Shown here one piece after another: positions 4,542 to 41,494 of a DNA stretch of 64,000 nucleotides. The notes beneath the pieces are model-generated. The model ran no database searches. It was not told the DNA's origin and worked only from the letters and a program-made list of their open reading frames with translations. This DNA is from Diplonema japonicum (taxonomy: Eukaryota > Protista > Euglenozoa: Diplonemea). The stretch covers positions 310,001 to 374,000 of the forward strand of contig OZ025689.1 in the NCBI GenBank assembly GCA_964019335.1. Direction: 5' to 3'. Made by a program: the position numbers and the translations under genes. Position 1 is the stretch's first letter; each line of letters starts with the position of its first letter.

Positions 4542-4614
4542 CACCTCCCGCGGGGCTCGAACCCGCGACCACAAGGTTAAGGGCCTTGCGCTCTACCGAC
4601 TGAGCTAGGGAGGC
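4542..4614 (-). tRNA. tRNA-Lys(CUU)
   Basis: GCCTCCCTAGCTCAGTCGGTAGAGCGCAAGGCCCTTAACCTTGTGGTCGCGGGTTCGAGCCCCGCGGGAGGTG folds as a cloverleaf with A and B boxes, followed by a T6 Pol III terminator (4536-4541). Confidence 0.92.
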
Positions 4615-4626
4615 TGTGTTTTCTAG
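4600..4626 (-). repeat. 27-bp target-site duplication of E1 (second copy at 11912-11938)
   Basis: ctgagctagggaggctgtgttttctag is identical at 4600-4626 and 11912-11938. Confidence 0.95.
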
Positions 4627-5331
4627 TTTTTTTTTTTTTTTTTTTTTCAAAATACCAATAGGTGCCACCATGGGGGAGCAACACCTGGGAAGGGGAAAGG
4701 TGAAGGGAAGCATGGAAATATTACAGGGAGGGCGAAGACCAGTTCTTCTGCAATCAGATGGAGCTGTGGACTCCGCCAACCCGTGCACCTGTTTGGAACA
4801 GCCGAAGAGGGCTGAATTACTTTAATTCCAAGCCGCGTAGACCTACGTGACTCGGACGGGGACCTTGACCCCAGTTCGTCGTTTTTCTCGACTGGGACCT
4901 CTGGTGACCGGAACTGGCCCCGGTCGCCCCCTCGAGAGGGATTTGCTCCATTGAGCGAAACATGAAAGGGTGAGAGTAAAATCTCGTGTGCGCATGGGGA
5001 TGATAGGGGAAGCATTTGCTCTCCCCGCTGCACTCCGGCTGGCGGGGGGAGGGGATGGCCGTACCACACTCGTTCGTGCGAAGATGAGAGGACTCATCTG
5101 GGCAACTTCAGAGTAGGCCGGGCCATCCGTTTTTGACTACAATGTCAGGGCACACGATAACAAGAGGATGTTAATTTTAAAAATTTAAAAGTTTAAAAGG
5201 GGACGGGCATACTGGTAAGAGAAAGGCCAGACGCCGGATGATGATAAAGAAAAGGATGAGAGGGAGTGGAAGAGAGGGGAAGGGAACGTAAGCACTAAAA
5301 GAATTGAAATGTTGATCTCACCCTACTCACT

Positions 5332-8300
5332 TCAGCGCAACACGGGGGCCGCAGGGCCGGCGTCAAGGGAGACAGCCGGCGGGATGAACGAAGGGGCAGC
5401 GGTACCTGCCGTTGCCGCAGACGGCGACGTGAAGACCCCGGATCTGGCCCAGTCAAGCAAGCCAGAGTCGGCGATGAGGGTGAATACCTGCGTCACGCGT
5501 TTTGACAGGCACTCCACCAGCGAGGGGCGTCCATTGGGAGCGTCGAGCGAACCCCGTCCAACCACAGCGCACCCCCCAACAACGTGCTCCCTGGACATCT
5601 TTGCTCCACACGCTGGGCAGCTGAGCTCAGCCTTCTTCCTGTTCGGTCCAGCCGCCTGCAGGAAGCCGAAGAAGAGAGCGGAGTGCCCTACCCTCAGCCG
5701 CGAGATGACCGTCTCCGCTAGCCTGGGGAGGGACTGGGGGAAGCACGCCGCTCGGAGCCCCGTGGCCCTCGCGTATCTCGGGGCCACCTCCCCGACAATG
5801 ACCGCAGACCTCTGCTGAATCTGGCGACGGACCAGGGCCCTGACCGACCTGTAGTCGAGAGAGGGGCGAGTCAGCTCGCGCTTCGTGCCCTCCCCGGCCA
5901 GCCTGTCTGCCGCCTCGTTGCCAGGAACCCCGCAGTGGGACGGCACAAACTGGAGAATGACTGGTGCACCTTGTGCACGTGCCGCGGCCACCAGCAGTTC
6001 CCAGGTCTCGTGGTCGAGCCTCTCCCTCTGCCGCGAAGGACCTGCCCTCAGCTGATCAAGGAGAGAGAGCGAGTCGGTACAGATCGACAGCCGGCTGTCT
6101 GCCAACGTGGGGTGCTCGCTCCGGAGCGCGGCCACCATGTCCAGAGCCACCTTGACAGCCAGACCCTCCGCCCGAAAGGAAGAGCAGAAATTGCTGACGC
6201 CGAAGCTCTCGGACACGGGTTCGTGGGGGCGGGGGAGCTGCAAGTAGACCCCGGCGCCGCCCCTCCACCTCTGGCGGTCCCGTACGACAGAACCATCCGT
6301 ATAGGCATGGATACCCGGTGGAAGGGCAGCCAGAGCCTCCACGGCCGCCTTCCGCTTATCCACGTCCGGCGACGAACGCGTGACCCTGCCGGGAAGGGCA
6401 GTTCTGAACTCCACCAGGAACGCGTGCCACGGTGCTACTTTGGGCGAGGCAGTCAGTAGCTCGAAGGTGTCGTACTTCCTGAAGCCTTCCTGCGTCGTCC
6501 ACCCCTGCAGTCCGCAGCGTCGTAGCGCAAGGATACCCGCACGCAGCCACCCATTGCCCATACCGGTCATCCGCTTCTGCTCAAGGACCTCGCGGTGAAC
6601 CGGGGAGGTCCTCCAGCAGAACGACTTCGCCGTCAACACCGCCGCAGCTCCCTCAGCCATCTGTCGGAGGGGTAGCAGACCTGCCTCAGCAACAACCTTC
6701 GCCGTGCCCGAGCCGTGCCAACAACCCGAGATCAGCACCGCCGCTCTCTGGTGGAGCCCAACAAGCTCCTCCACCCTGCTGTCCCTGAGCCTGGCAAAGT
6801 AAACACCCATGCAGTACCGGAGTAGCGGGAGAACGTACGTGAGGTACAGAGATCGGAGCGTGGCCTTCTTGCACCCCCAGGTCGTGCCCGACAGGAGCCT
6901 TAGTACCCTCAGCCTCTTGTCAGCGCTCCTCAGGACATCCCCCGCATGCTCGTCAAACGTGAGCCCAGAGTCTACAGTGACCCCAAGATACTTCGCCGAC
7001 CCACATAGAGGCAAGGGGCGAGCCGCCATGTAACCAATGTCGGACCTCCGGATGGCGGCGGGGATGTCGAAGGACCGTTTGCCACCCGCCTCCACGACCC
7101 GAAAGCCAGACAGCTCACGGACGCCAGACAAGGTCCCACAGGCCCCAACCCCAAGATTAAGGACAGGGTCCTGGAAGGCCCCCGGGCAAAGCGGGACACG
7201 CGACGAAGAGAAGTAGACATTAAGCCGCTTCTGATAGGGAACGCACACTGCCTGCGACTTGCTGGAGCTCAGCAGCATGCCCCGTCTCCCACACCAGCCC
7301 TCAACCGCGTCCATCACAGCCTGGGCCCCTCGCTCAAGACCAGCCAGGTCGCCCTGCCCGGCTGAGACCACCACCGCAACATCGTCGGCATAAAGAACCG
7401 ACAGGTCCGCCATCCCAACCAGCAACCTGGCTAGCTCGTCGACGTAGATGGTGTAAAGGACGGGTCCCAGCACAGACCCTTGGGGCACCCCTCTCCTCAC
7501 CTTCGTCGTCGACCCTCGCGAACGACCCACCGTGACCGCCGCCGTACGACCGCAGAGGAAGGAGCGCGTCCATTCGACGAAGGGCTCAGGGATCCCTTTC
7601 CTCCGCATCATGCCCAAGAGAGCTTCGTGCTGAACCAGGTCAAACGCAGATGAGAAGTCAAACAGCAGGGCAGCCGACAGACGCCGACTGTCTTTGTTCC
7701 TCGACAGGCACCCGGTCAGGGACGCCACCTGCTCCTCCGTGGAGCGGCCCCTCCTGAAGCCAGCCTGGCTGTCGTGGAGACTCTCAACGCCCGACGCGCT
7801 AGAGTCTAGGAGAAAGGTAAGCCTCTCCTCTATCATCCTCTCAAGCAGCTTACAAAGACAGCTAGTGAGACATATGGGACGGTACGATGCAAGCAACGTG
7901 GCGTCCTTCCCTGCCTTCGCCACTGGAACAATCACCCCCTTCTTCCAGGCACCCGGCACGATCCCCGCCTGCCATGAGCGATTGAGGAGCAGAAGTAGAA
8001 CCCCGAGCGAGGGTTGGTCGAGGTGGAGAAGCATCTCCGCGAAGATGCCATCATCACCCGCTGCACTGCGTGTCTTCATCCTTCCCAGACCGCGGGTGAG
8101 ATCATACACCGTAAAGGCGTGGCACCCAAGCACGTTCGTCGAAGGAGCTACGTCCACCGCGTCCCCATCACCACCCTGGCCGTAGAGCTTGCCGAAGTGA
8201 GCCCCCAGGCGGTCGGCTTTCGCCTTGTCCGTCACGAACCTCCCCTCGAGAATGGGAAGGTGCGGTCTGCGGTGTCTGCCGTCCAGCTTCTTCACCGCCC

Positions 8301-9498
8301 TAAACGCAGACCCGAGGTCCTTGCTCCGACTGAGGTCAGCCGCCATCTCACCCCAGGCCGCGCGCTTCGACTCGGTCATGAGTTGGTTTACCTCCTTGAC
8401 CTTCGCCTTGTAGACCGCCGCCACGCTGTCGTCCTCAGTCTCAGCCGACTTGAGGAAGCGATCCCGCAGGGCGTTCCGTTCTTCGAAGGCGTCTTCGAGT
8501 TCGGCCGTCCACCAGGGGGTCGGGCCTCGTCGCACTCCGCAAAGCGGAATGTGGTCGTCAGCTGCATGCAGAAGAGCCTCTGTAACCTCCTTCGTGAAGG
8601 AGTCAATGTGGGCCTTCGTGTCGATCTTGGTCAGAAGGGCAGCGGCGGCCGCGGTGAAGTCGTCCCACCTGGCCTTTTTGAAGTTCCAGGTAGGGCAGGG
8701 TCGCTCCGAGCAGTAGGCGTCCTCAAGCGGCAGGCGGAAGGAAACCGGGCTGTGATCAGAGCCCCACGTCCCCAACGTCCTCGGCTCCAGTTCCGCACAA
8801 CGTCCCACCACCAGGTCCAGAACGCGTGGCGGTGAGTCCCGCGTCGGCTCGTCTCGGTTGTTGTAGACGGTGTAGCCGTGGGTGTCAAGCCAGTCCCTGA
8901 CCACGTTCCCCCTTTCGTTGGGCGTTGTCACCTTGGCATCCCAAGAGCTGTGGTGTGCGTTGAAGTCGCCAGCAACGATCGTGTTCTTCCCCACAGGTAG
9001 GCTGCCCGGCCGTAGGTACTCGGGGTCCCTTGTTCCTCTGCTTATACTCACAGGCGTGAGGTACACGTTGGAGAGGGTGACCGGGACGCGCTTCACACAG
9101 GAGATCCTCACGTCTAATCGCTCAGTGACACTGTCACCTTCAGGGAGTACGAAAGGAGCTTCCTCCGAGGCAAGGCAGTCACGGACATACGTGATGACAC
9201 CACCGCCTCTCGTCGCAGAGCCGTCCGTCACCGGTGTTGTGCGGTCCCTCCTGTAGGACGTGTATCCAGGCAGGTATGGTGTCTCATGCCCCTCCCTAAG
9301 GTGTGTCTCCTGGATCATAATGATATCCAGCGTCAGTAGGACAGCGTGGTAGGACACGGTTGACCACTTGGCGGCAAGACCGTTGCAGTTCCAGGACAGG
9401 ACCCTGAGTCCCTTCGGCTTCGGGGGTGGGAGCTTCTTAGGTGGACCGGGGTTCGTCTCAACCAGCCCAAGCAGCCCCAGCAGGTCCCTGGCCGACAT
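5332..9498 (-). CDS. E1 ORF2: 2A-like peptide, AP endonuclease, reverse transcriptase, RNase H, C-terminal Cys/His motif (frame open upstream to the UGA at 9640-9642)
   Basis: APE motifs SWNCNG, IQETH, GDFNAH, GSDH. RT motifs YRPICLTS, QAGFR, DFSSAFD, GVPQGSVLGP, YADD, KYLGV. RNase H motifs YTDGS, CTDS, VPSHCGVPGNEAAD. C-terminal CPAC...H. Confidence 0.95.
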   Translation of the reverse strand: MSARDLLGLLGLVETNPGPPKKLPPPKPKGLRVLSWNCNGLAAKWSTVSYHAVLLTLDIIMIQETHLREGHETPYLPGYTSYRRDRTTPVTDGSATRGGGVITYVRDCLASEEAPFVLPEGDSVTERLDVRISCVKRVPVTLSNVYLTPVSISRGTRDPEYLRPGSLPVGKNTIVAGDFNAHHSSWDAKVTTPNERGNVVRDWLDTHGYTVYNNRDEPTRDSPPRVLDLVVGRCAELEPRTLGTWGSDHSPVSFRLPLEDAYCSERPCPTWNFKKARWDDFTAAAAALLTKIDTKAHIDSFTKEVTEALLHAADDHIPLCGVRRGPTPWWTAELEDAFEERNALRDRFLKSAETEDDSVAAVYKAKVKEVNQLMTESKRAAWGEMAADLSRSKDLGSAFRAVKKLDGRHRRPHLPILEGRFVTDKAKADRLGAHFGKLYGQGGDGDAVDVAPSTNVLGCHAFTVYDLTRGLGRMKTRSAAGDDGIFAEMLLHLDQPSLGVLLLLLNRSWQAGIVPGAWKKGVIVPVAKAGKDATLLASYRPICLTSCLCKLLERMIEERLTFLLDSSASGVESLHDSQAGFRRGRSTEEQVASLTGCLSRNKDSRRLSAALLFDFSSAFDLVQHEALLGMMRRKGIPEPFVEWTRSFLCGRTAAVTVGRSRGSTTKVRRGVPQGSVLGPVLYTIYVDELARLLVGMADLSVLYADDVAVVVSAGQGDLAGLERGAQAVMDAVEGWCGRRGMLLSSSKSQAVCVPYQKRLNVYFSSSRVPLCPGAFQDPVLNLGVGACGTLSGVRELSGFRVVEAGGKRSFDIPAAIRRSDIGYMAARPLPLCGSAKYLGVTVDSGLTFDEHAGDVLRSADKRLRVLRLLSGTTWGCKKATLRSLYLTYVLPLLRYCMGVYFARLRDSRVEELVGLHQRAAVLISGCWHGSGTAKVVAEAGLLPLRQMAEGAAAVLTAKSFCWRTSPVHREVLEQKRMTGMGNGWLRAGILALRRCGLQGWTTQEGFRKYDTFELLTASPKVAPWHAFLVEFRTALPGRVTRSSPDVDKRKAAVEALAALPPGIHAYTDGSVVRDRQRWRGGAGVYLQLPRPHEPVSESFGVSNFCSSFRAEGLAVKVALDMVAALRSEHPTLADSRLSICTDSLSLLDQLRAGPSRQRERLDHETWELLVAAARAQGAPVILQFVPSHCGVPGNEAADRLAGEGTKRELTRPSLDYRSVRALVRRQIQQRSAVIVGEVAPRYARATGLRAACFPQSLPRLAETVISRLRVGHSALFFGFLQAAGPNRKKAELSCPACGAKMSREHVVGGCAVVGRGSLDAPNGRPSLVECLSKRVTQVFTLIADSGLLDWARSGVFTSPSAATAGTAAPSFIPPAVSLDAGPAAPVLR

Positions 9499-9639
9499 CC
9501 GTTCAAGTAAGGAAGGGATCAAGGAAGGGAGGACGTCGTACAAGTGATGTGGAAGGTGTCTCCTCGGCTGTATGCGCGGGAGACCAGGAGAGGGGGCGTG
9601 GTCGTCGATCTGACGCCCCCCCTGCTCAGCGGGACCCCT

Positions 9640-11868
9640 TCAATTGGCAGGGGCGGGGGCCGGGCCCACAGAGGCTGCCCGTCCACGGCCGGCCCCGTTG
9701 GGGGAAGCAGAGTCGCCAGCCAGCGACTGGGCGCGTCCCCTTCCGCCCCCTTGCTCCGTCGATGTCGGGTAGGGGCCTGGCGTGCTTACGCCCTGCGCCT
9801 GGTGCCCCTTCGTCCCTGCCTTGGACCCAGCCTTGCCGCCCTTGCCCTTCCCAGCCACTGCCGTCCGCCCAGCTCCGTCTGCAGATGACGCCGGCGCGCC
9901 AAGTGACGCTGCCATCCTCTCCTGGAGGTCGCGGACCGTCGCCTGCAGACCGTCGATGGTCGCCTGCATCGACTGGATCAGCGCGAGGAGCGCCGGGACC
10001 TCTGGTTCCGGTGCGGGATTCTTCTTCTGGGAGTCACGGGGAGGTGTCGTGGTCGGGGAAGCCGCAGAGGAGACCGGAGTCACAGTGCCAAGTGGCGGAG
10101 GGGCAACCGAGCTCGGTGGAGATGACCACGGATTGGTGCTCGGCAGCCCTGTGGACTGCACCGTGGGGCCAGGGGCCGGCGTCGGCGTCTGGGCCGTGGT
10201 TGCCGCAACCGGCGTCCGAGCCGCGGGTGGAGCCTTCTTGTTGGTGCGGGGCGGGAGCGTGACGCTCGGGTGGTCTTCCGCGTCGTGCAGTCGAACGAGA
10301 CGAGAGCCGAAGAGCCATGTCCTGGCCTTGGGGGGCGGGGCGTCGGCGACGATGAAGAACACGAGTTGCCTCGTGCCCTGGAACGCCGTGTCAGAGCGTC
10401 GGATGATGGACGACGGCTTCCAACCGATGTGGTCCATCATCCCGTCGAAGGCTGCCCTGGTAACAGACAGCGGGGCTCCGGTGAGCAGGTACCGACGCTT
10501 TGTCCTCTGCTTGGCGAGGGCCTCCCTCAGACGCTGCTCCGTCTCCGGCAGGCACCTCACGGTCCAACCCTTGCGATGGGCCACCCCCAGGGACAACCCG
10601 CCCAGTGCCTTCGCCAGCTGGAAGGCCTCCGCCCTCCCCTCCGCTACGATGGGCACGTAGGTGTACCCCCCGCGCCGCTCGGTCGTCCTGACCATGCAGC
10701 CGTCGCCCGAGGCCCGGAGTACCGCATGGACGGATGCCGCCGGGAGCCGCAGGCCCACCTCGTGGCTCCAGTGCCGCGCCCGCGGCTCGTTCCCGTCGAT
10801 CTTCTTCGGGCGGAAGATCGCCTGCTCCTCCACCGCCACGCCCTGGGTCGCGACGAGGTCCCGAACCCTGGCCTTCGCCGCGTTCACGCTGTCAGCTTTC
10901 ACGCTGACGTACACTACCTCAGAGCCGCCATCAAAAGAAGCGAGTGGGGTGTAGGAGGGGGGGTTCGACCCGACCGAGAAGGTGTGCACGGCCTTGTGCA
11001 CGACACGCTGGCCGGCGAGTACGATGACGGTGCATGGGGTGGTCGAACCGGCAACCTCCGTCAAGAGGACGAAGGTCAGGGAGGCCGTGGGCCTCGCAGT
11101 GCGAATCGCGTCCACCTGCTGGAGGTCGTCGAGAGCGACGACGGCGCGGGGCACCTCCTCAGGGGGAGCAGTGTTGGTGTAGATGGGGGCGTCCCACGTG
11201 TCGGGGACCAGATCCCAGTGAGGCTCCGGGGCCGGTGCGGGAGCGGGGGCCGTGTCCTTCTCGTCGGTGTCAGAGTCCGACATGGGGAGGGCGGTGTCGC
11301 AGGCAGCGGCAGTGAGGACGGCAGTAGACCACACGGCAGCAGTAGAGGCTGGAGCAGGCGCAGGAGCAGGGGAGTCGGCAGCAGCAGGCGCAGGAGCAGT
11401 GGTGTCGGCAGCAGCAGGTGCAGGAGCAGGGGAGTCGGCAGCAGCAGGTGCAGGAGCAGTGGTGTTGGCAGCAGCAGGTGCAGGAGCAGTGGCAGTGGTG
11501 TCGGCGGCAGCAGTCCTCATCCTCGCCCTCCTGACCTCTGGCGTGTCGACCGTGAACGAGGTGACAACGCCCGGCGACTCGCTAATTAAGACGACAGAGT
11601 CGTCGGAGCCCGAAGCGGCGGCGGTGGCAGCGTCAGCAGCTGCTGCCTTCTGTCTGGCCCTTCTGGCCGCCTTCTTCCCTTGCCCGGGGGAGGGTGTCAC
11701 CACCGGCGTGACCCCCTCTGCGCGCTTCCTCTCCACCTCCTCGCGCGTGCGCTTCGCCCTGGCGGCGGCGTTGTCCTTTACCCGCTCACCGCGGGCTTTC
11801 TCCAGGATTTCTTCCGTCCTGGACTTGTGGTGAGCGGGCCTCTTTTTCTTCTTGTTGGAGGTCGACAT
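9640..11868 (-). CDS. E1 ORF1 (742 aa): basic N-terminus, Ala/Pro repeats, conserved central domain, C-terminal coiled coil
   Basis: ATG lies directly after the (GAAAA)n leader. The core WDLVPDTWDAPIYTN...LHDAEDHP is conserved with ORF1 of E2 and E3. Confidence 0.85.
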   Translation of the reverse strand: MSTSNKKKKRPAHHKSRTEEILEKARGERVKDNAAARAKRTREEVERKRAEGVTPVVTPSPGQGKKAARRARQKAAAADAATAAASGSDDSVVLISESPGVVTSFTVDTPEVRRARMRTAAADTTATAPAPAAANTTAPAPAAADSPAPAPAAADTTAPAPAAADSPAPAPAPASTAAVWSTAVLTAAACDTALPMSDSDTDEKDTAPAPAPAPEPHWDLVPDTWDAPIYTNTAPPEEVPRAVVALDDLQQVDAIRTARPTASLTFVLLTEVAGSTTPCTVIVLAGQRVVHKAVHTFSVGSNPPSYTPLASFDGGSEVVYVSVKADSVNAAKARVRDLVATQGVAVEEQAIFRPKKIDGNEPRARHWSHEVGLRLPAASVHAVLRASGDGCMVRTTERRGGYTYVPIVAEGRAEAFQLAKALGGLSLGVAHRKGWTVRCLPETEQRLREALAKQRTKRRYLLTGAPLSVTRAAFDGMMDHIGWKPSSIIRRSDTAFQGTRQLVFFIVADAPPPKARTWLFGSRLVRLHDAEDHPSVTLPPRTNKKAPPAARTPVAATTAQTPTPAPGPTVQSTGLPSTNPWSSPPSSVAPPPLGTVTPVSSAASPTTTPPRDSQKKNPAPEPEVPALLALIQSMQATIDGLQATVRDLQERMAASLGAPASSADGAGRTAVAGKGKGGKAGSKAGTKGHQAQGVSTPGPYPTSTEQGGGRGRAQSLAGDSASPNGAGRGRAASVGPAPAPAN
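11340..11510 (-). repeat. 30-bp coding tandem repeat (APAPAAAD[T/S][T/P]) in E1 ORF1
   Basis: Repeated gcagcagcagg(c/t)gcaggagcag units; the same repeat occurs in E3 at about 28695-28860. Confidence 0.8.
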
Positions 11869-12374
11869 GATTCTTTTCTTTTCTTTTCTTTTCTTTTCTT
11901 TTCTTTCCTTCCTGAGCTAGGGAGGCTGTGTTTTCTAGTTTTTTTTTTTTTTTTTTTTTCAAAATACCAATGCAGGGCCGCCATGGAGAGCAACACCTGA
12001 GAAAAGGGAAAAAAAAGGTGAAGGGAAACCATGGGGAAATAGGGAGGGCAATGGACCAGGCTTCTGCAAGCAGGAGGAGCCCTGGTCCCCCACCAACCCG
12101 TGCTCTGCTTTGGGACAGCCGAAGAGGGCTGAATTACATTTTTCCCTCAGTCAAGTGAGAGAAAAACGGGGGCCTACCTTCCAGCTGGATGTCCTTCTTT
12201 GGCTGGAACCTCCGGCGGAAAGCCCCCCAGGGAGGTATTGCTCCTATTGAGCGAATCATTGGTGAGTGTGAAAATAAAAAAAAGGGGAAATGGGAAACAG
12301 TGAGAGGAAGGTGAAGGAAGGGAAAGGAAAGTGGAAAACACAACATTTCACTTTACACACACGCGGGCGATCCC

Positions 12375-16523: not shown

Positions 16524-16664
16524 CCTCCCGAGTAGGGTGGGGATCAGTGCAGAAAAGTCGGTGAAGAAACAGAGAGGTAGGAGTCTCCTGGGGAGGATGC
16601 GAGGGAGACTAGGAGAGGGAGCATGGTCGTAGATCTGCTGCTCCCCCTGTTCTGCGGGGCCCCT

Positions 16665-19520: not shown

Positions 19521-19964
19521 TTTTCTTTTCTTTTCTTTTCTTTTCTTTTCTTTTCTTTTCTTTTCTTTTCTTTTCTTTCGTGTTTTCTAGAAGCCGTGAA
19601 AAACGTTAGTGTTGTTTTCGATTCTAATGATAACCCGGTGTCATACCTTGTATGTACAAAATAAATGCAGCCACACCTGCCCCTGCATTGACAAGACCTG
19701 AAAGGGACACCAAGAATGTCAGCAATTTGTCGATTTTTTTCATTTTCCCTTTTCTTCCCCCCCACCTCCTATTTCCGTCCTCGTCGGTGCGAGTGGCGAA
19801 GAGAACGGGACAGCGAAAGGGATGAGCACGGAGACTCCACCACAACAGAAAAGCGAAAGAGAAAAGAATACGAGAAATTGAAAAGCCCAACCACAACCCC
19901 TCACCATTATCCCCGCGTTCTTTTAAAAAAAAAATGTTTGACTACTTTTCCATGTTGACCAAGG

Positions 19965-20764: not shown

Positions 20765-20795
<31 letters not shown>

Positions 20796-21461: not shown

Positions 21462-21471
21462 AATAAGTAGT

Positions 21472-21505
<34 letters not shown>

Positions 21506-21728: not shown

Positions 21729-21779
<51 letters not shown>

Positions 21780-26783: not shown

Positions 26784-26873
26784 ATCCACCTACAGGGGTA
26801 TTGGTGAGAAGCATTAGATAGAAAGTTACACTTATAATCTCACAAAAGAAGAAAATAAGAAGGGACATGATGT

Positions 26874-27373: not shown

Positions 27374-28311
27374 TTTAGTGCTCGACCTCTAATCTGAAGA
27401 GAAATTAATATTTGCTAAAAGGAAAAAAAAGCCAAGTCAAACATTGGATATAAAAAAAGGGGGGGCAGGGATGTGGGAAAGAAATAAAATAAAAAACATC
27501 TTTGTGTTTATTCACTTAAAAAAAGGAGGGGGGGGGATTCATTTTATAAAAAGGAAACCACCTTTGTGACCCATTGCCATTTTCTAAAAGGCTAGGGCTC
27601 GGGAAGGAAAAAAAGGGAGGTCCTCTTTTTTTGCTGTTCTATTACTTAACTTTTAATTTGGTGGTGCTCGGGGTAAGAGGAGGAAGAGATATTTTTCTAG
27701 TTCACGGCCATTCTAAGCAAAGTGTCAATAATTGCATCATTTTTCAGGATGTTCGCTTGTGTCGTGTGGATCTTGTTCAGCTGCGTGTGTGTTTTTTTTT
27801 TTTTTTTTTCAATTTAAAAAAATGAGATAAGAACAGCAGGTGCTGCCAGGATGTTTAAATCTTTACCGAGCCGCGCCGCAGCTGGGTCAAGCTGTCGCCA
27901 GAAGATCGAATGCGTTGAAGGAGGCTTTGCTCAGGTTTTGAGGCTTTGTTCGTATTTGACAAACCCTTCACCAGCGTTGGTGCAGGATGCGTTGCGGACC
28001 GCTTTCGTGGATCCACGACAGAAAAGTGGAAACGGTGGGCCTACAGTAAGGCTCGAGGCCAGCTTTTTAAGTCTCGAAAATGAGAGGCTTTTGTACAAAG
28101 ACCAAGAAGATGCTGCAAAGCTGGGTGGAGAACAAAAAATCCACGGTAATCAAAGACTTGAGAGACAGGGTCGCATGTCGAAGGATAAGCATGGAGGAAC
28201 TGAAGCATGCGCTGAGGCAACTGAAGAAAAGGAAATCCAACAATGGTATCCAAACTTTTCATGTATCACATCTCTCCGACATTTCTAGATTATCATTGCC
28301 CAGATCTGGCA

Positions 28312-34300: not shown

Positions 34301-34705
34301 ACTCGCCCCTCTCTCGACTACAGGTCGGTCAGGGCCCTGGTCCGTCGCCAGATTCAGCAGAGGTCTGCGGTCATTGTCGGGGAGGTGGCCCCGAGATACG
34401 CGAGGGCCACGGGGCTCCGAGCGGCGTGCTTCCCCCAGTCCCTCCCCAGGCTAGCGGAGACGGTCATCTCGCGGCTGAGGGTAGGGCACTCCGCTCTCTT
34501 CTTCGGCTTCCTGCAGGCGGCTGGACCGAACAGGAAGAAGGCTGAGCTCAGCTGCCCAGCGTGTGGAGCAAAGATGTCCAGGGAGCACGTTGTTGGGGGG
34601 TGCGCTGTGGTTGGACGGGGTTCGCTCGACGCTCCCAATGGACGCCCCTCGCTGGTGGAGTGCCTGTCAAAACGCGTGACGCAGGTATTCACCCTTATCG
34701 CCGAC
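28312..34705 (+). mobile_element. E3: near-identical copy of E1 (family A), frameshifted and lacking the family-A 3' end
   Basis: Preceded by TSD agatctggca (28302-28311) and an A/G-rich leader; ATG at 28343. ORF1 and ORF2 are nearly identical to E1 with small deletions. Homology stops at ...FTLIAD (34705). Confidence 0.92.
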
Positions 34706-36067
34706 AAACGGGGGAGGCCTCCGGGCCTCTTTTTAAAAAAAGGGGGTCCGATTACACACACACATGAACATGTAGACGAACGCGGTGTGTGTGGTGGCTG
34801 CCCACCTCCACGGTGGTGGTCCCTGGGCAACGCGCAGGTGGTGAAGGTTGCGCGGCTGAGAGGCAGCTCGAGAGGAGCAGGGGAACGGTGTTGCGTTGGG
34901 CGGCCGAGGGCCGGAGCCGGAGCGCCGTGTTGGATGGCATCCCCTGGGGAAGCCTCCTGCACGCCAGAACGAGGACCGGATCCGGAGACGCCGTTTGATG
35001 GTTTTCCTGGGGAAGCTGACCTGAACGCCCGAGCGAAGTGGCCTGAGCGTGGGGAGCACTGTTTGCCGACAGAAAACAAGATTAATGCAAAATGTCCAGA
35101 GTGCGCAACAGTGTTTTCCACGTGAGGGGTTCGGTTTCAAAGTGGGTCCTCCAGCCACCAGAGTTGTAGGCTGGGTACCCGCGGAGAGAGAAGCGGAGCG
35201 GAGGCGTCAAGTACGGTGGACCACCTCAAGGGATGTAAGTCCATTGTGTGACACAGTCTCTCGGTGAAGGTCCGACTTCTGGTGGGTAGGCAGGCAGAAC
35301 CGCATAGGGGTGTAAGGAACACCATTGTGTGACCTGTCGCACACGGGGAAAGCCCAAGGCCGGTGGGTTATCTGCCAATGTGTCCCCCTCCTCTACTTCG
35401 CCTCTCACAACCTCTTCCTCCCCGCTGACGATTGACTCCACAGCACTCGCCGGCCTACCTGGTGCGCCCGCGTCATTACGCGATAGGGAGTCTCGTTGGA
35501 AAAACATCTTTCGCAGCTGAGAAGGGGGGTTTTTTTTTAGAAATAGTAACCAGTAATTCTTTTTTCCCCCTCCCCCATTGGTTTCCCTTTCTTTTTATTT
35601 TCCCTACCAGGCTCCTTTTCTAGTTATGCATTCCTCCCTTCTTTGTGGAAGTTGAGTTCTGAACTTGACTTTTCCTTTTACATTTCCTTTTCAAATTTAT
35701 ATTTTAGGCTCCCACAGCCCAACAAAACCAGCAGATGGTGGGGTCCCTGTGGCTAGATAAATCAAAATTAGGGATCTCATCGCCGTCCTTTAATATTTGG
35801 GGTTGTCTTTATTTGGTGACAGCCGAAGCCTTCGAGGCCCAAGAGCTGCGTGGCGGGGGAATGGGGAAAAAATAAGAAAGGTGGATGTCGGGGGCCCCAG
35901 GAAAATATACAAGAGGTCGAGCAAACGAGCAAGAGGTCCCCCCCGATATGGCTCAGTAAGAGAGACTGTTATTAACCTTCCCTTCCCAATTTTTATGGTT
36001 TCAACTTTCTCCGCCCCCCATCCCCCCCGCCTGGTAGTGGAATAATAATTATTAATTATTATTAAAA
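34706..36067 (+). mobile_element. E4: degenerate 3' portion of a different non-LTR family with a (TTA)n-A tail
   Basis: 3' UTR resembles E6 (ggctccc..agcccaacaa; atggctcagtaa.agagactg; cgcctggtagtggaata). Decayed CxxC fragments (KCPECATVF). Followed by TSD agatctggca at 36068-36077. Confidence 0.7.
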
Positions 36068-36077
36068 AGATCTGGCA

Positions 36078-38545
36078 AGGCTCCGGGCCCAGACGGCATC
36101 TACAACGAAATGCTGAAGTACCTGGGACCGGTGGCCAGGGAAGTTCAACTCCTCCTCTACAACTCATCCCTCCAGACCGGTGTCGTCCCTGCCGAATGGA
36201 GGCGGTCTTCCATCATCCCCCTCATGAAAAAGGGCAAAGACCAATCCGAACCCGCCTCGTACAGGCCGATCGCGCTGACGTCAAACATCGTGAAGACGTT
36301 GGAGCGAATAGTCAAGGACAGGATGTGCTTCCTGCAGGACACAGGACGGGTAAGGCAATTGCACACATCGCAGGCGGGTTTCCGGAAAGGGAGGTCCACG
36401 GAGGAAAACGTGCTGTACGCCGCCTCAAAGCTCAAAAGTGTCAGACTGAGCCAAGGTCTGGGGGGTCTCCTGCTGTTCGACTTCAAAGGAGCCTTCGACA
36501 CAGTCTGGCACAAGGGAGTGATCGCAAAGCTGATAGGCGACGGATACCCTCCCAAGCTCGTGAAATGGATCACCTCTTTCCTCGACCAACGTAAAGCCTC
36601 CGTCTGTGTGAACGGGGAACACGGCTGCGTGAAGACAATGACAGGGGGCGTACCCCAAGGCACCATCCTGGCCCCGCAGCTCTTTTCCATCTACGTCAAC
36701 GACCTGGCCAGGTTGTACAGGAAGGCTGGAATCGACGCGGTAGTGTACGCAGACGACATAGCGATAGTGCTGGAGGCGGGGAGTCCTGCCGAGCTGAACA
36801 AGAAGGTGCAACGCGCGGTGAGCCTCACGGAGCGATGGTGCGAGACGTTCTCGATGAAACTGTCCCAGGAAAAGACAGAGTTCATGCCGGTAGAGGGACA
36901 GTTCTGGAACTCGCACGACAGTCTCGCAAACCTCATCAACGCCCGCTTCCCCTCGAGTGGGGCGAAAGTCAAGGTGGTACGCGAGGCTAAATATCTTGGC
37001 GTCACCTTCGACGAAAGCATGAACTTCCACGAGCATGTGCAGAAGGTGAAGGGAAAGATCAACAGCCGTCTTCGCCTGCTGCGCAAACTCGCCGGAACAA
37101 GGTGGGGCTGCCGCAAGCACACCCTAAGGACGCTGTACCTGACGTACGTCCAACCGGTGCTGCGCTACTGTCTCGGTGCTTACGGCAACTTCGTGGGACA
37201 TGCTGCTCTGGCCGAGTTCGACTCGCTACAATACACAGCAGCGAGGTTGATAACGGGATGCTTCGACAAGACTTCCGCGACGGTGACCAGGTCAGAGGCG
37301 GGCATCTGGGAGATTGAATCCTTGCTGGAACACGACACCCTGGTGCTCTACGAGAAGGCACAGCGTCAACCGGGGACAACAGCGGAGAAGGCAACAAAGA
37401 TATCCGGGGGTCAGATGTGGTACGGGAAAAGCTGGCGAAACACCGCGCTCGACTTGGCGAAGAGTCACGGGATGCCGGAACGCGAAGACCTACCACACCA
37501 CTCAGTCACTCAGAGCGCAGACCTGCAGCTCCCTCCATGGGTCCAACCCAAAGTCCTGTTCCACCCCGACCTAGTCCGCAAGGTACACAAGAAGGACGAA
37601 AAAAGTCTCAAACTCCGAGCGGCCTTCGAATCGATCAGGAGGCACGGCATCCCAGATGTGATCGTCTACACCGACGGGTCAGTCACCGGACACAGGAACG
37701 GCGGTTCGGCAGCTGTGATAAGGATCGGGTCTGACACACCGAAGCAGGCACGCAAGAGCGGAGGAGCAGTGACTTCGGCCTACCGATGCGAACTGAAAGC
37801 GCTGAACCTGGGGCTGCAATTGACACTGTACCATACCCGGAGACAAGGTGTGACGACCGGAGTAGTGCTGCTGTGCTCGGACTCCCAGTCGGTGATCAGA
37901 AGACTGATGCAGGGCCACAGAGAGATGAGGCAGAAGGAGGAACTGCTGGCTTGGAAATGGCTGGACGCGCTTGACCGCCAAGGCCTCTCCACCATCATCC
38001 AGTACGTTCCCGGACACTGCGGCCTACCAGGTAACGAGCAAGCCGACCGACACGCCAAACGCGCCGCAAAGGAGTCGACACCGGACGGACCGACGGACCT
38101 GATGACCACAAAGAGCCTCATCAAGAGGTCGGTGAACCGCGACTGGGCAGCCTCGTGGGAGAAGACGGGTCGGGACAAGAAGTACCGAGAGGAGATCGGC
38201 GCGAGGTACCTCCCCTTGAAGGAACTGTCCTGCAGACACGATGAGGTACAGATAACGAGACTGCGAACGGGCAGGAGCCACCTGACTTGCGGTTTCCTGT
38301 CGAAACCCGTCCAGAATGACATACGTTGCCTCTCGTGCCATTCGATCCAGGACAGACACCATCTGCTGATCGGGTGCCCAGCTGGAGACAAGGTCCGCGA
38401 AGAGATCTTCGGGGATGACATCCCCACGACCACGAAGGAGATGCTCACAATGAGGGTGAGTGAAACCGCCTCCTACCTGAAGAGGATGGACCTCATCTGA
38501 GACTCTCACGACCGCCGAGCCGCTGACCGCAATCGCAGGACGTAG

Positions 38546-38580
<35 letters not shown>

Positions 38581-39113
38581 AACAGAAAAAAGTGAGCCAA
38601 AAAGTACTAGTGAACCCTCTCCCCCTCCCCCTGTGTTTCCCATTATTACCCTGTCGTGCACCCCAACTTCTGTCTTCACCTTTCCCCGCCCCTACACACA
38701 TCCCCCCGTATCATTTCCCTTTGTTTTGAATTTTCTAAGGCTCCGCTGCCCAACAAAGCTGGCTGAAGGGGATGCCTCCGTGCCAGTGTGCCGCTCGTGA
38801 GGGCGAGCACGGACGAGGTACCCCACTCCTCAAAAACCCGGAGGTTCGCCCGAAGGGTGCTGGCTTGGGAAGCGGGCTGGAGAGCTGCCGGGGTCACGGA
38901 GGTGGGCGAAGTCGCGAACACTGGAGCCCACGAACCGGCCCCACCTCCGTCCTCGGTACGTATGGATAGTTTAGCGGAAGTTTCAAGGTTATCACATTCC
39001 TTTCCCCCTTTCGTTAGATACAGGGAGACCCTTGGTCCACCTGTTCTGTCCCCCCCCCCAGCCTTTGCTTCGCACGTCAGTGGTTCATTTATTATTATTA
39101 TTATTATTTAAAA
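36078..39113 (+). mobile_element. E5: 5'-truncated non-LTR retrotransposon (RT-RNase H), (TTA)n tail
   Basis: Begins inside the KAPGPDG motif. The tail ttattattattatttaaa is followed by TSD agatctg (39114-39120). Confidence 0.9.
36110..38500 (+). CDS. E5 RT + RNase H ORF (N-terminally truncated)
   Basis: YRPIALTS, QAGFR, DFKGAFD, GVPQGTILAP, YADD, KYLGV, YTDGS, VPGHCGLPGNEQAD, CLSC...H. Confidence 0.92.
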   Translation: MLKYLGPVAREVQLLLYNSSLQTGVVPAEWRRSSIIPLMKKGKDQSEPASYRPIALTSNIVKTLERIVKDRMCFLQDTGRVRQLHTSQAGFRKGRSTEENVLYAASKLKSVRLSQGLGGLLLFDFKGAFDTVWHKGVIAKLIGDGYPPKLVKWITSFLDQRKASVCVNGEHGCVKTMTGGVPQGTILAPQLFSIYVNDLARLYRKAGIDAVVYADDIAIVLEAGSPAELNKKVQRAVSLTERWCETFSMKLSQEKTEFMPVEGQFWNSHDSLANLINARFPSSGAKVKVVREAKYLGVTFDESMNFHEHVQKVKGKINSRLRLLRKLAGTRWGCRKHTLRTLYLTYVQPVLRYCLGAYGNFVGHAALAEFDSLQYTAARLITGCFDKTSATVTRSEAGIWEIESLLEHDTLVLYEKAQRQPGTTAEKATKISGGQMWYGKSWRNTALDLAKSHGMPEREDLPHHSVTQSADLQLPPWVQPKVLFHPDLVRKVHKKDEKSLKLRAAFESIRRHGIPDVIVYTDGSVTGHRNGGSAAVIRIGSDTPKQARKSGGAVTSAYRCELKALNLGLQLTLYHTRRQGVTTGVVLLCSDSQSVIRRLMQGHREMRQKEELLAWKWLDALDRQGLSTIIQYVPGHCGLPGNEQADRHAKRAAKESTPDGPTDLMTTKSLIKRSVNRDWAASWEKTGRDKKYREEIGARYLPLKELSCRHDEVQITRLRTGRSHLTCGFLSKPVQNDIRCLSCHSIQDRHHLLIGCPAGDKVREEIFGDDIPTTTKEMLTMRVSETASYLKRMDLI

Positions 39114-39120
39114 AGATCTG

Positions 39121-41122
39121 CCTTTCAAGCTACACAACCCCTGAAGGATCTGACCAGATACGAGGTACTGTTCCCGAAGAAAACATGGTCAGATCGACAA
39201 AGGGAAGCAGCCAGGGCCTACAAGCTCCCAGAGAGAGCGGCAACACCATTCTCAGGTTATGCCTTTGAGAAGAAGTACAGAGTTACACCTTGGCAGAGAT
39301 TCGAGGGTAAACTGATACTGGCCCCCTTCCTCGACATACATGTGAAGAGATCGGACACCAGTGAAGTCAGAAGGAAAGCAACAGAGGACACTCTGAACGG
39401 GCTTATCGAGAAGCACGGAAAAGCCTTCTGCATGATCTTCACAGACGGGTCATTGAAGGACGGCAGGAACGGAGGAGCTGCTGCGATACTGTTGCGAGGG
39501 GAGAGAAAAGCTTCGTATGGGGTCAGCGGTGGATCCTATACGTCATCCTACAGGTGCGAGCAAAGGGCCATAGAGCTGGGGCTGCACCTCGCGACAAACC
39601 TCTCGAAGAGAGTGGGCACGAGCCAAGAGATGGTCCTTATTTGCACTGATTCGCAGTCGGTAATAAGGAGGATGTGCCAGGGGCACCTGTCCGCTGTCTC
39701 TGCAGACGAGTACAAACTGTGGCACGAGGTAGCGGGACTTGTAAAGAGAGGCCACAAAGTGGTCATACAGTACGTACCAAGTCACTGCGGATTCAAATGG
39801 AACGAGATGGCGGACAAGAAGGCGAAGGAGACCTGCCGGGCAGTTGCCCACGAACAGAAGACCAGCATAGACATCGTGAAGTCACTGGTGAGAAAAAAGG
39901 TACTGGCGAACCACCTCCTCTTCTGGAAAAAAACGGGTGTCAAGGAGACATACCGAGAGCTTTTCGCAGGGAATTTCGAGAAGTTTGAAGAGTTAAACAG
40001 GGAACAAGAAGTTGCGATCATGAGGCTGAGAGTGGGGAAGAGCCCCCTCATAAGCGGGTATCTACTCAATCCCCCGGCCGATGTGGTCACATGCCACCTT
40101 TGTTCGATGCCTCAGACGCTGAGCCACCTCCTGAAAGAATGCCAGGACGATGGTAGAGCTGACCAGAGAAGTCAGATCTTCGGTTCCTCCCTTCCTTCGC
40201 TCAAGGCCCTACTGTCAACTGACGCCGGGAAAACCGTACAATTCCTGGAACAGCAGGGCCTGTTGTGACCGACCGTGAGATATAATCCCCTTTATAAATT
40301 ATATTATAAACTAAACTTTACTTAAATACTTTTCTCTCAAATTATCCTGAGTTTGAAGCTGTACTGTTGTTATACGACTTCAGACAGCAATTGTTTCTAA
40401 CTCAATCTCTCGACTCTGGCTTCACTCCTATCCTTTCTTTTCACCTCCCTCCCCAGTGTCTTCCCTTATTTTCCATTACCAGGCCCCTGACCCCCGCCCC
40501 CAGTGTTATTCAAAATTTTCACTCACCTTTCATATAGAAAGAAAAAAGAAAAAAAAAAAGAAAAAAAGAAGGACAGATGATTCAAGCTTCGGTGTACACG
40601 ATCGAGCTTGATTTGAATTCCTTTATTTTTGAGAAAAAAAAAAAAAAAGAAAAAAAAAAAAAAAAGAAGAATATATATAAAAAAAAAAAAAAAGAACTGT
40701 AGAACGAAACTTAATTGAATTGAATTTATTGGCTCCCGAAAGCCCAACAAGTCCAGCAGACGGTGGAGTTTCACAGTCAGCTGGTTAGTTTTTCACAATT
40801 GAAACTCCTCCAAAGTTCTTAAAGTCTGGGAGGTCGTCTCTTGTTACTAGAGGCGGCTAATGCCTCGAGACCCAGGTGCTGCCTGGTGGGTGGGATCGGT
40901 TTTATTTTATTATGAAAAGAGCGTGGTGAGGGGGTCCAAGTAATTTACAACAGGGAGCAGCGGACCAGGACCCCTCGACCAATGGCTCAGTAACAGAGAC
41001 TGCTTTTCACGAATCACTTTCAAACACCTCTCTTGGTTTGAAGTGATGTCCCATTCCCTTTGGTTTTCTCTACTCCCCTTCGATCCTCCCGCCTGGTAGT
41101 GGAATATTTATTATTATTAAAA
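39121..41122 (+). mobile_element. E6: heavily 5'-truncated non-LTR retrotransposon (RNase H + 3' UTR), (TTA)n tail
   Basis: RNase H ORF; the tail ttattattaaaa abuts the intact target agatctggcatc-tRNA-Asp. Confidence 0.88.
39342..40268 (+). CDS. E6 RNase H and C-terminal Cys/His region (fragment)
   Basis: IFTDGS, SYRCE, ICTDSQS, YVPSHCGFKWNEMAD, RLRVG, CHLC...H. Confidence 0.85.
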   Translation: MKRSDTSEVRRKATEDTLNGLIEKHGKAFCMIFTDGSLKDGRNGGAAAILLRGERKASYGVSGGSYTSSYRCEQRAIELGLHLATNLSKRVGTSQEMVLICTDSQSVIRRMCQGHLSAVSADEYKLWHEVAGLVKRGHKVVIQYVPSHCGFKWNEMADKKAKETCRAVAHEQKTSIDIVKSLVRKKVLANHLLFWKKTGVKETYRELFAGNFEKFEELNREQEVAIMRLRVGKSPLISGYLLNPPADVVTCHLCSMPQTLSHLLKECQDDGRADQRSQIFGSSLPSLKALLSTDAGKTVQFLEQQGLL

Positions 41123-41134
41123 AGATCTGGCATC

Positions 41135-41206
41135 TCCTCGGTAGTATAGAGGTCAGTATATCCGCCTGTCACGCGGATGACCCGGGTTCAATTCCCGGCC
41201 GGGGAA
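41135..41206 (+). tRNA. tRNA-Asp(GUC), the targeted copy
   Basis: TCCTCGGTAGTATAGAGGTCAGTATATCCGCCTGTCACGCGGATGACCCGGGTTCAATTCCCGGCCGGGGAA folds as a cloverleaf; a T-run lies downstream. Confidence 0.92.
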
Positions 41207-41261
41207 TTCTTTTTGCCAAGTAGATACAAAATACGCCCGGGTTTATTAAGTCAAAAAAGAA

Positions 41262-41333
41262 TTCCCCGGCCGGGAATTGAACCCGGGTCATCCGCGTGAC
41301 AGGCGGATATACTGACCTCTATACTACCGAGGA
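41262..41333 (-). tRNA. tRNA-Asp(GUC), identical inverted copy with an unoccupied upstream flank
   Basis: Exact reverse complement of 41135-41206, with its own T-run terminator. Confidence 0.92.
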
Positions 41334-41494
41334 GATGCCAGATCTGGGCAATGATAATCTAGAAATGTCGGGGTGGTGGAGATACGCCATGCAGACACAA
41401 GGTACCGAAAATGCAAAAATTACCATACTTGGTGGAAAAAAGTTATTTGTTTACTGTGAATGGTGTTTTTCTCAAAAAAAAAAATGGATTTTTC

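Follow-up and report, generated by a model that had tools for sequence, protein, structure and literature searches.

Co-oriented APE-RT-RNase H retrotransposons stacked just upstream of two tRNA genes in the diplonemid Diplonema japonicum

In the literature consulted, elements that target tRNA genes by position are on record from yeasts and dictyostelids. The closest precedent for the elements described here is Dp_NLTR-A of Dictyostelium purpureum, an RNase H-bearing non-LTR element which, in the accessible text, inserts 2-6 bp upstream of tRNA genes (n=16); the RNase H-bearing Pp_NLTR-B of Polysphondylium pallidum inserts 39-64 bp upstream (n=3; both PMC5006619). The TRE5-A/B/C elements of Dictyostelium discoideum are located 44-54 bp upstream of tRNA genes in the opposite orientation; the same source states that their ORF1 binds TFIIIB, that targeting requires the B box, and that ORF2 consists of APE, RT and a zinc finger without RNase H (PMC5911963). 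According to the accessible sections on the LTR elements, Ty3 inserts 1-4 bp upstream of the site at which transcription begins, which in yeast tRNA genes lies ~12 bp upstream of the mature tRNA, and dictyostelid DGLT-A inserts ~15 bp upstream, with its RNase H binding the TFIIIC subunit Tfc4 (PMC5006619, PMC6101501). Dada elements, as far as the available text goes, are sequence-specific DNA transposons that insert inside the tRNA gene, with one tRNA type per family (PMC3706591). In the accessible portions on trypanosomatids, L1Tc is widely dispersed, preceded by no more than a loose upstream motif, and carries a single ORF, a pair of C2H2 fingers (CX2CX12HX3-5H) and Pr77; these portions describe no tRNA-gene targeting for L1Tc/ingi or NARTc/RIME (PMC5814959, PMC3383444, PMC4035085). 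Our literature search found no report of a tRNA-gene landing habit for the group of the diplonemids.

The window analyzed here, a 64,000-nt stretch of D. japonicum contig OZ025689.1 (positions 310,001 to 374,000), contained three tRNA genes called with ARAGORN and Rfam, one tRNA-Lys(CTT) and two tRNA-Asp(GTC) genes identical in sequence. Two stacks were located upstream of tRNA-Lys and tRNA-Asp. Together they hold six non-LTR elements of the APE-RT-RNase H type, which fall into five families, and all six were co-oriented with their tRNA, as the preliminary description had stated. The Lys stack consists of the following features.

4517-19646, minus strand: GT-AG host-gene intron enclosing tRNA-Lys and the entire Lys stack
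4542-4614, minus strand: tRNA-Lys(CTT) gene with a T6 run behind it (ARAGORN, Rfam)
4615-4626, minus strand: 12-nt lead CTAGAAAACACA separating the E1 tail from tRNA-Lys +1, the downstream target copy
4627-11911, minus strand: E1, family A, full length (7285 nt)
11912-11938, minus strand: 27-nt duplication at the E1 5' junction, spanning -12 to +15 of tRNA-Lys
11939-19579, minus strand: E2, family B, full length (7641 nt)
19580-19590, minus strand: 11-nt upstream target copy at the E2 5' junction, forming the palindrome TTCTAGAA with the two preceding bases

E1 extends from a (GAAAA)n 5' end through an intact ORF1 (9640-11868), ORF2 (5332-9498) and a 3' UTR to an A21 tail, and its ORF2 encodes a 2A-like motif (LVETNPGP), APE, RT, RNase H and a C-terminal CCHC-type motif. 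In E2, ORF2 (12375-16523) showed three differences from D. japonicum P0001, and codon 172 of ORF1 (16665-19520) was a stop, against Lys in the expressed P0350; D. japonicum transcript proteins matched the proteins encoded by E2 at 99.7-99.8% identity. A trypanosomatid host was rejected on account of these D. japonicum matches and the GT-AG introns. The A21 tails of E1 and E2 both adjoin the 12 nt ahead of tRNA-Lys +1, which confirmed the earlier reading of these junctions, and the upstream target copy of E2 places the founding Lys nick at -12. RNA contigs (X3, X4), with a loose end at 4518 among the 24 of 84 loose ends listed, join the host exons across the Lys stack, and the host gene gave a weak COPI_assoc match below the cut-off (E 0.0011). 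The tRNA, its promoter and its terminator were intact. The proposal that the elements use a safe harbor gained direct support from this intactness and from the splicing across the stack.

The Asp stack lies further along the window, together with an uninserted copy of the same gene.

28101-28286, plus strand: E0, decayed E6/P0037-like ORF2 fragment with both ends lost
28283-28311, plus strand: upstream flank of tRNA-Asp, with TTCTAGA at 28283-28289 and a 10-nt target copy AGATCTGGCA at 28302-28311
28312-34705, plus strand: E3, family A, 5'-complete, frameshifted, without the 3' 819 nt and tail
34742-36067, plus strand: E4, 1.3-kb non-autonomous or internally deleted element
36068-36077, plus strand: target copy AGATCTGGCA between E4 and E5
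36078-39113, plus strand: E5, 5'-truncated, with RT, RNase H, CCHC-type motif and a (TTA)n+AAAA tail
39114-39120, plus strand: target copy AGATCTG between E5 and E6
39121-41122, plus strand: E6, 5'-truncated, with RNase H, CCHC-type motif and a (TTA)n+AAAA tail
41123-41134, plus strand: 12-nt lead AGATCTGGCATC, i.e. AGATCTG(GCATC), ahead of tRNA-Asp +1
41135-41206, plus strand: tRNA-Asp(GTC), targeted copy (ARAGORN, Rfam)
41262-41371, minus strand: second tRNA-Asp (41333-41262) with the same upstream flank, uninserted and serving as empty-site control

The flank of the empty site was identical over 35 nt (28276-28310 compared with 41371-41337). The alignment of E1 with E3 (6394 nt) contained 6312 matches, 82 mismatches and 12 gaps. 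The claim that family A occupies both loci stands in that the two copies are near-identical; the 3' junction of E3 is gone, and a -12 position is not visible for it. E4 starts with a putative HDV-like ribozyme (34742-34868) and has an E6-related 3' UTR and a (TTA)n+AAAA tail. Over a stretch of 340 aa, E5 and D. japonicum P0036 showed 100% identity, E6 shared 67% aa identity with D. japonicum P0037, and E0, at 59-61% aa identity to the E6/P0037-like ORF2, ends ~60 nt before the Asp target. As described earlier, the tails of E4, E5 and E6 all adjoin AGATCTG(GCATC), the 12 nt ahead of tRNA-Asp +1; they share the ending TTAAAA. The last 4 nt of the target copy between E4 and E5 may represent microhomology with E5, and the last 3 nt of that between E5 and E6 also occur in the E6 family sequence. 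The outer copies were in decay (nonsense codon in E2, frameshifts in E3, E0 decayed) and, judged by this, look older.

The elements are APE-type non-LTR (TPRT) retrotransposons with APE and RT in one ORF. Pfam Exo_endo_phos, RVT_1 and RNase_H scored above cut-off in E1 and E2, and RT and/or RNase H were detected in E3, E5 and E6. Further retrotransposon hallmarks were the tails, either A21 or (TTA)n, target-site duplications 7-27 nt long (at the outer junctions, 11 nt at E2, 27 nt at E1 and 10 nt at E3) and 5' truncation of E5 and E6. The window self-BLAST revealed no LTRs or terminal repeats, and no Pfam integrase match was found in the elements. Two RT sublineages, ~33% identical in protein, were distinguished, one with A21 and the other with (TTA)n tails. 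A D. papillatum family, the P0073 cluster, has 17 members. A separate ORF1, ending with a stop before ORF2, is present in E1 (742 aa) and E2 (951 aa); E4-E6 are without that region. The motif LVETNPGP of E1/E2 lacks the Asp of DxExNPGP, the 2A-like motif that in L1Tc/ingi lies ahead of and in frame with APE, and the full DVExNPGP appears in P0037 and P0161, relatives of E5/E6. One C-terminal C-x2-C-x7/8-H-x4-C motif was aligned in each of E1, E2, E5 and E6. The putative ribozyme of E4 was the single match of its descriptor in the window, compared with 1 in 30 shuffles, and scored 22.5 bits against Rfam RF02682, below the gathering threshold of 44; no HDV-like ribozyme was found in E1-E3, which start with (GAAAA)n. 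The 3' UTRs matched no Rfam family above threshold, the Atlas look-up with ORF1 returned only scores of 0.82 or less, the Foldseek search gave nothing at E<=0.001, and PDB sequence matches were generic RTs.

Under target-primed reverse transcription, the first nick lies where the tail joins the target, here on the template strand of the tRNA gene, and the position of the second can be read from how long the duplication is. The founding junctions were at -12 (Lys) and -11/-12 (Asp), as read from the assembly; at the tails, public contigs end or drop out, and the family A/B tail junctions are not covered by them because poly(A) zones are skipped. Later insertions may have cut within an earlier tail, so their positions are only bounded: E1 may have cut inside the A tail of E2, and since all Asp tails end with TTAAAA, E5 and E6 are bounded only at -11 to -18. 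The cut site of E3 is not visible because E3 is without the 3' 819 nt and tail of E1. Among the 12 of 31 loose ends listed, other E6-family tails in public contigs run into TT/TTA rather than AAAA, although AAAA may occur at some of the remaining ends. This pattern fits the AAAA at Asp being a remnant of the E3 poly(A), which would place E3 at -11/-12. The earlier statement of exactly 12 nt for five insertions is accordingly reduced to two independent measurements, one for the first insertion at each locus. Transduction of donor 3' flank was considered and rejected, as each tail adjoins the 12-mer of its own locus.

With an ORF2 profile in six frames, all eight window matches fell in the two stacks or directly ahead of the Asp stack. 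Outside the window, four X2 contigs continuing past the E6 tail had a consensus with an A-box-like TAGTACAA, which would place a tRNA +1 ~11-12 nt after the tail, a weak and post hoc match with a simulated chance of 0.7% under an assumed tie rule. Among the loose ends listed, X2 contigs past the E6 tail stop after a median of 41 letters, and 4/4 X1 upstream ends extend at least 255 letters. Contig depth was 17.6 for X1 on an 11-kb contig, 203-1115 on E6 and 272-570 on family A; such depths suggest many copies per family, although depth is no copy number and was left out of the evidence. X1 and X2 were taken as DNA from their lack of intron skips. In a metagenome scan, no tRNA gene was present in the best 80 of 356 confirmed loci (0/80), and the 12 best-scoring matches were at most 30% identical, the loci being so remote and so short that they weigh neither for nor against targeting. 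Searches of viral and prokaryote collections came back empty.

That these elements target tRNA genes at all is close to certain, and the claim that an APE-RT-RNase H lineage targets the region just upstream of them was strongly supported. A lack of any tRNA-gene targeting, with two insertions arising by chance and being tolerated and later elements homing into the earlier tails, is very improbable. In general, APE elements may plausibly pile up in A-rich tails, and elsewhere a single E6-type tail could be read individually; it belongs to an old copy (~89% alike), and no tRNA begins within the 30 letters after it. However, this explanation requires two independent chance events, each with a probability of 5e-5 to 8e-4 that a 3' end in the same orientation falls no more than 20 nt from a given tRNA (assuming 60 Mb and 300-5000 copies), and it leaves unexplained the absence of any ORF2 profile match (0) from the rest of the window, which is rich in poly(A)/poly(T) runs. 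The earlier wording that insertion is regardless of target sequence is not established. Although the Lys and Asp 12-mers are unrelated, as had been noted (3/12 positions alike), both insertion sites are palindromes cut 2 nt inside, with the 10-nt copy at 28302-28311 lying within CCAGATCTGG; the 7-mer TTCTAGA recurs; and the 5' ends of tRNA-Lys and tRNA-Asp share 9 of the first 15 bases (.CCTC..TAG...AG). An unlikely alternative is that targeting delivers the elements to the region upstream of the tRNA and the endonuclease picks the bond by local sequence, with families A/B preferring TT|CTAGA and the TTA-tailed families TT|AAAA or palindromes. TTCTAGA occurs only twice in the 71-kb background (both strands), yet it is found upstream of both tRNA types, at the nick in Lys and, at Asp, with CTAGA exactly 27 nt before the E3 5' junction, the length of the E1 duplication. 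E3 would then have cut at -29 of tRNA-Asp with an E1-like 27-nt duplication, making the shared -12 partly coincidence. Every Asp tail ends with TTAAAA, and ingi/L1Tc insertion sites carry conserved nearby sequence in the accessible part of PMC3383444. The background chance at a fixed distance (+/-1) is 8e-5 for TTCTAGA and 1.2e-3 for CTAGA, but the motif match is post hoc, and E1 as second comer would have cut A|CTAGA, leaving a match of only 5 nt. Moreover, the 10-nt E3 duplication fits E2 (11 nt) and L1Tc (11-12 nt in the available text of PMC3383444) equally well, and one founding Asp junction remains at -11/-12 under either reading of E3.

Somewhat less probable again is direct reading of tRNA gene DNA (5' acceptor arm, A box) by an element protein that cuts at a fixed distance upstream without a host factor. 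The shared 5' bases would suit such a protein, as would the +1..+15 tRNA fragment that the E1 duplication leaves behind the E2 tail, by which E2 could have entered after E1 without an intact gene; direct reading of such sequences is described for Dada transposons and target-specific LINEs (PMC3706591). However, neither a zinc-finger nor a Myb domain stands at the N terminus of ORF2, the 2A motif is directly followed by APE, the common tRNA bases lie 13-27 nt from the nick, and the nonsense codon of E2 weakly suggests that E2 is the older Lys copy. We favor, with a probability of roughly 0.6, insertion guided by position near the Pol III start site, likely via the Pol III machinery. Two independent founding insertions, one at -12 and the other at -11/-12, lie in 12-mers that are not alike, which favors such a positional rule, and the same offset in RT sublineages with different tails supports it. 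Against it stand the recurrence of TTCTAGA, the palindromes, the 9/15 tRNA identity, the E6-type tail without a tRNA, and the second, identical tRNA-Asp, which is empty. There are also only two loci with two founding events, whose 1-nt agreement would arise by chance in an estimated ~4-7% of cases if insertions spread over -5 to -50.

Under position-guided insertion, the element particle would bind TFIIIB/TFIIIC or the open complex and make the first nick in the template strand of the tRNA gene, ~12 nt before the mature tRNA and near the predicted transcription start. By analogy, candidate tethers are ORF1 (as in TRE5-A) or the RNase H domain (as in DGLT-A). Newcomers would re-cut the gene-proximal junction, probably at -11 to -18, where the earlier tail could pair with their own. 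The tRNA gene would stay active because its promoter is internal and an A/T-rich tail replaces the upstream flank. The fuller picture of an Ingi-like LINE radiation in diplonemids, with at least two deep sublineages tethered to Pol III and nicking the template strand at ~-12 of any tRNA gene, is about an even bet; the RT tree contains no reference named L1Tc or ingi, and the searches returned no sequence of that name. If true, tRNA-gene targeting would have arisen independently once more, in Discoba and specifically in Euglenozoa, where the trypanosomatid look-alikes are dispersed. The LINEs would form a target-primed analogue of Ty3, and E1 offers an intact copy. They would show a LINE cutting tail-first at the Pol III start site while the gene stays targetable. 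Since both ORFs of E1 are intact and the family is transcribed, experiments could address the tether (ORF1 or RNase H) and the target rule directly. As a safe-harbor delivery system, a compact LINE with a constant landing position ahead of any tRNA gene would likewise attract interest.

With TRE5, Dp_NLTR-A, Ty3 and DGLT-A as precedents, the new aspects are the euglenozoan host, the Ingi-like lineage, the ~-12 offset and the tail-first landing. Compared by description, the Diplonema elements resemble Dp_NLTR-A and Pp_NLTR-B in the RNase H downstream of RT and the narrow distance upstream of tRNA genes, and differ in the ~-12 position, the euglenozoan host, the five families, the 2A-like motif and the putative HDV-like ribozyme in one family. 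They share with TRE5 two ORFs and position-specific non-LTR insertion upstream of tRNA genes; unlike TRE5, they are co-oriented, land tail-first at ~-12 and possess RNase H. Ty3 and DGLT-A act at nearly the same position, but the likeness is one of position only, as these are LTR elements with an integrase and the Diplonema elements would use an APE nick and target-primed reverse transcription. As with Dada/Dewa, tRNA genes or spacers serve as multicopy landing sites; unlike those sequence-specific elements, family A occurs at two tRNA types and leaves the tRNA gene whole (PMC3706591). Like L1Tc/ingi and NARTc/RIME, the elements have a euglenozoan host, the APE-RT-RNase H order, a putative 2A-like motif ahead of APE (without the Asp in E1/E2), a 5' HDV-like ribozyme (putative, in E4), ~11-nt duplications and a short non-autonomous derivative, whereas families A/B differ from L1Tc in their separate RRM-type ORF1, CCHC-type motif and (GAAAA)n 5' end (PMC5814959, PMC3383444, PMC4035085).

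LINEs that carry an RNase H domain are targeted to tRNA genes in this euglenozoan, inserting tail-first at about -12 relative to the first base of the mature tRNA (+1). At tRNA-Lys, the order on the minus strand is flank, 11-nt target copy (target-site duplication), E2, 27-nt target copy, E1, 12-nt lead and tRNA-Lys. Both E1 and E2 open with a (GAAAA)n run followed by ORF1 and ORF2, and their ORF2s, 76% identical, encode a 2A-like motif, APE, RT, RNase H and a CCHC-type motif.

Features of the window, with strand
4517-19646, minus: GT-AG host intron (15.1 kb) holding tRNA-Lys in sense orientation, E1 and E2
19590-19580, minus: 11-nt target copy at the Lys locus
Lys locus, minus: E2, 7641 nt, A21 tail
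tRNA-Lys -12 to +15, minus: 27-nt target copy between E2 and E1
Lys locus, minus: E1, 7285 nt, A21 tail
11872-11911 and 19521-19579, minus; 28312-28342, plus: (GAAAA)n starts of families A/B
34742-34868, plus: putative HDV-like ribozyme of E4, structural descriptor match
35690-35780, 38735-38790 and 40725-40785, plus; 4830-4770 and 12135-12070, minus: pyrimidine tract/AG/hairpin regions
19953-20246, minus: short ORF with a CxxC motif, presumably Rdx/SelW-like as judged by eye
22849-24483, minus: Roc-COR GTPase, ordinary host gene
41495-42919, minus: MIP-T3/IFT54, ordinary host gene
44421-46535, minus: iPGM, ordinary host gene
48016-50451, minus: formin, ordinary host gene
55824-58190, minus: malate synthase G, ordinary host gene
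61022-62605, minus: EF-hand kinase, ordinary host gene

The (GAAAA)n run lies directly 5' of the ORF1 start codon in families A (E1, E3) and B (E2), where an internal promoter would have no room. The ORF2 of E2 differs from the D. japonicum protein P0001 at 3 of 1383 positions, and its ORF1 departs at 3 of 951 from P0350, which belongs to the transcript cluster of P0001. Together with the match of E5 to a D. japonicum protein (below), this assigns the window to D. japonicum or a species very close to it, and hence to the diplonemids rather than the trypanosomatids. The ORF1 structure model, built from just two sequences, was of poor overall quality (pLDDT 49.7); its confident part (242-322) resembles RRM domains (best Z 9.7, rmsd 2.0, 72 aligned), a lead towards a predicted RNA-binding protein. 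The host intron would measure ~170 nt without the stack. RNA contigs from two of four runs span the splice, their loose end at 4518 matching the exon that ends at 19647; spliced host RNA thus exists, although it may originate from an empty allele.

At tRNA-Asp, the plus-strand order is flank, AGATCTGGCA, E3, 36-nt linker, E4, AGATCTGGCA, E5, AGATCTG, E6, 12-nt lead and tRNA-Asp. E3 aligned to E1 with 6312 matches, 82 mismatches and 12 gaps but lacks the final 819 nt of E1 and a tail; family A, noted at both loci in the preliminary description, is thus not seen at -12 at tRNA-Asp. The linker after the break of E3 consists of a hairpin and a T/A run. E5 was 100% identical to D. japonicum P0036 over 340 aa, and the 3' UTR of E4 was similar to that of E6. 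A second, sequence-identical tRNA-Asp lies inverted 55 nt downstream, with the same 35-nt upstream flank free of insertions; the pair forms a convergent inverted duplication (41110-41358, 55-nt spacer) with the stack at one copy only. E0, a decayed E6-like fragment (28101-28286, plus), ends ~60 nt upstream of the Asp target and stops at nearly the same ORF2 point as the 5' truncation of E5 (36078), a K-G-K-x-P-G-P-D-G motif ahead of RT.

In target-primed reverse transcription, the point where the tail meets the target shows the position of the first nick. The E2 junction lies at -12, a position fixed because the original flank reads TT/CTAGA, and under any reading of the Asp stack one founding event occurred there at -11 or -12. 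E1 could have cut within the A tail of E2. The tails of E4, E5 and E6 each end in TTAAAA before the target, and the nicks of E5 and E6 are therefore bounded only to -11 to -18. Since the 5' junctions of E5 and E6 show microhomology, duplication lengths cannot prove the insertion order; the stop codon of E2, the frameshifts of E3 and the decay of E0 fit, weakly, an order with the newest element nearest to the tRNA. The initial claim of insertion exactly 12 nt upstream thus rests on two events, one of them known to within 1 nt, and competes with rival readings; the remaining junctions are not independent.

Tail placement at the tRNA genes exceeds chance. With assumed figures of 60 Mb and 300-5000 copies, the probability that a co-oriented tail lies no more than 20 nt from one particular tRNA is 5e-5 to 8e-4. 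Chance insertions followed by homing into earlier tails, without targeting, would require such an event independently at two of the three tRNA genes in the window, and all eight six-frame matches to the ORF2 profile lay inside the stacks or directly before them although A/T runs abound in the remainder; we regard this explanation as highly improbable. We favor, at a probability of roughly 60%, position-guided insertion, in which the element would contact the Pol III machinery at the tRNA gene and the first nick would fall on the template strand close to the transcription start site.

That insertion proceeds regardless of target sequence, as originally proposed, agrees with the Lys and Asp 12-mers matching at just 3 of 12 positions. 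However, both nicks sit 2 nt inside palindromes (TTCTAGAA and CCAGATCTGG; 8-nt palindromes occur at 0.35% and 10-nt ones at 0.10% of window positions). TTCTAGA also recurs at -31 to -25 of tRNA-Asp, and its CTAGA begins 27 nt before the 5' junction of E3, the length of the E1 duplication (by chance, the 7-mer would occur at a set distance ±1 with a probability of 8e-5 and the 5-mer with 1.2e-3), so that E3 may have cut at -29. This motif-based alternative, a regional tether combined with a local motif selecting the cut site, is unlikely yet worth keeping in view, and slightly less credit goes to direct reading of tRNA gene DNA by the element, with which the identity of 9 of the first 15 nt of the two tRNAs is consistent. 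Sequence may accordingly contribute to the choice of site.

Contigs from two public runs (X1 and X2) were aligned to 38950-41240. Among the matches listed (12 of 31 loose ends), five contigs read TT or TTA after the E6 tail where the window has AAAA. The AAAA thus seems peculiar to the Asp locus and may be a remnant of the E3 poly(A). Four X2 contigs among these matches stop at a median of 41 letters past the tail; their consensus (agreement only 0.56) includes CGGTAGTA, positions 5-12 of tRNA-Asp, and its A-box pattern would set +1 ~11-12 nt past the tail. Random flanks gave an A box at this offset in 0.7% and the 8-mer in 0.01% of 200,000 simulations. Because the comparison was post hoc and its tie rule assumed, we take this as only a hint of a tRNA start ~11-12 nt behind an E6-type tail. 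Counting against it, the only X1 contig, which represents an old copy (~89% alike), has no tRNA start in the 30 letters past the tail.

E4 is a 1.3-kb element whose 5' end is, judging from sequence, a probable HDV-like ribozyme. The P1, P1.1, P2 and P3 pairings and the C/A of J4/2 are all there, together with a long J1/2 hairpin. It was the sole descriptor match in the window (shuffled controls, one match in 30 shuffles), and its Rfam score of 22.5 bits was under the threshold. The 3' UTRs share an arrangement partly conserved across families, a pyrimidine tract and AG ahead of a short hairpin region of GGCT/AGCC type, which may represent an element for RT recognition or one resembling a splice acceptor.

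Of 303 sequences with an RT match, 265 remained once near-duplicates and off-length segments were left out, and from these a midpoint-rooted FastTree phylogeny was built. One clade of 37 (support 0.98, placement of P0190 aside) united E1-E3 and E5 with 10 labelled proteins (D. japonicum, D. ambulator, D. papillatum, Flectonema and Rhynchopus); inside it, families A/B and E5/P0037 formed distinct sublineages (0.999 and 1.0) whose deeper order the tree does not resolve. The D. ambulator protein P0002 has a duplicated 2A and APE N-terminus with three NPGP/HPGP motifs.

A literature search, with subscription papers and Repbase mostly outside its coverage, found no tRNA-gene-targeted retrotransposons for diplonemids or other Euglenozoa. 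Such targeting by RNase H-bearing LINEs is likely undescribed in a euglenozoan; PMC10161547 has a narrative supplement on repeats that could bear on novelty. The elements are Ingi-like by features, the RT tree containing no named ingi, L1Tc or NLTR references. They resemble L1Tc in a 2A-like motif, APE-RT-RNase H and the putative HDV-like ribozyme of E4, but depart from its single ORF and C2H2 features (PMC5814959). The tether to Pol III factors would be analogous to those of TRE5-A, with an ORF1-TFIIIB contact and B-box dependence (PMC5911963), and DGLT-A, with an RNase H-Tfc4 contact (PMC6101501).
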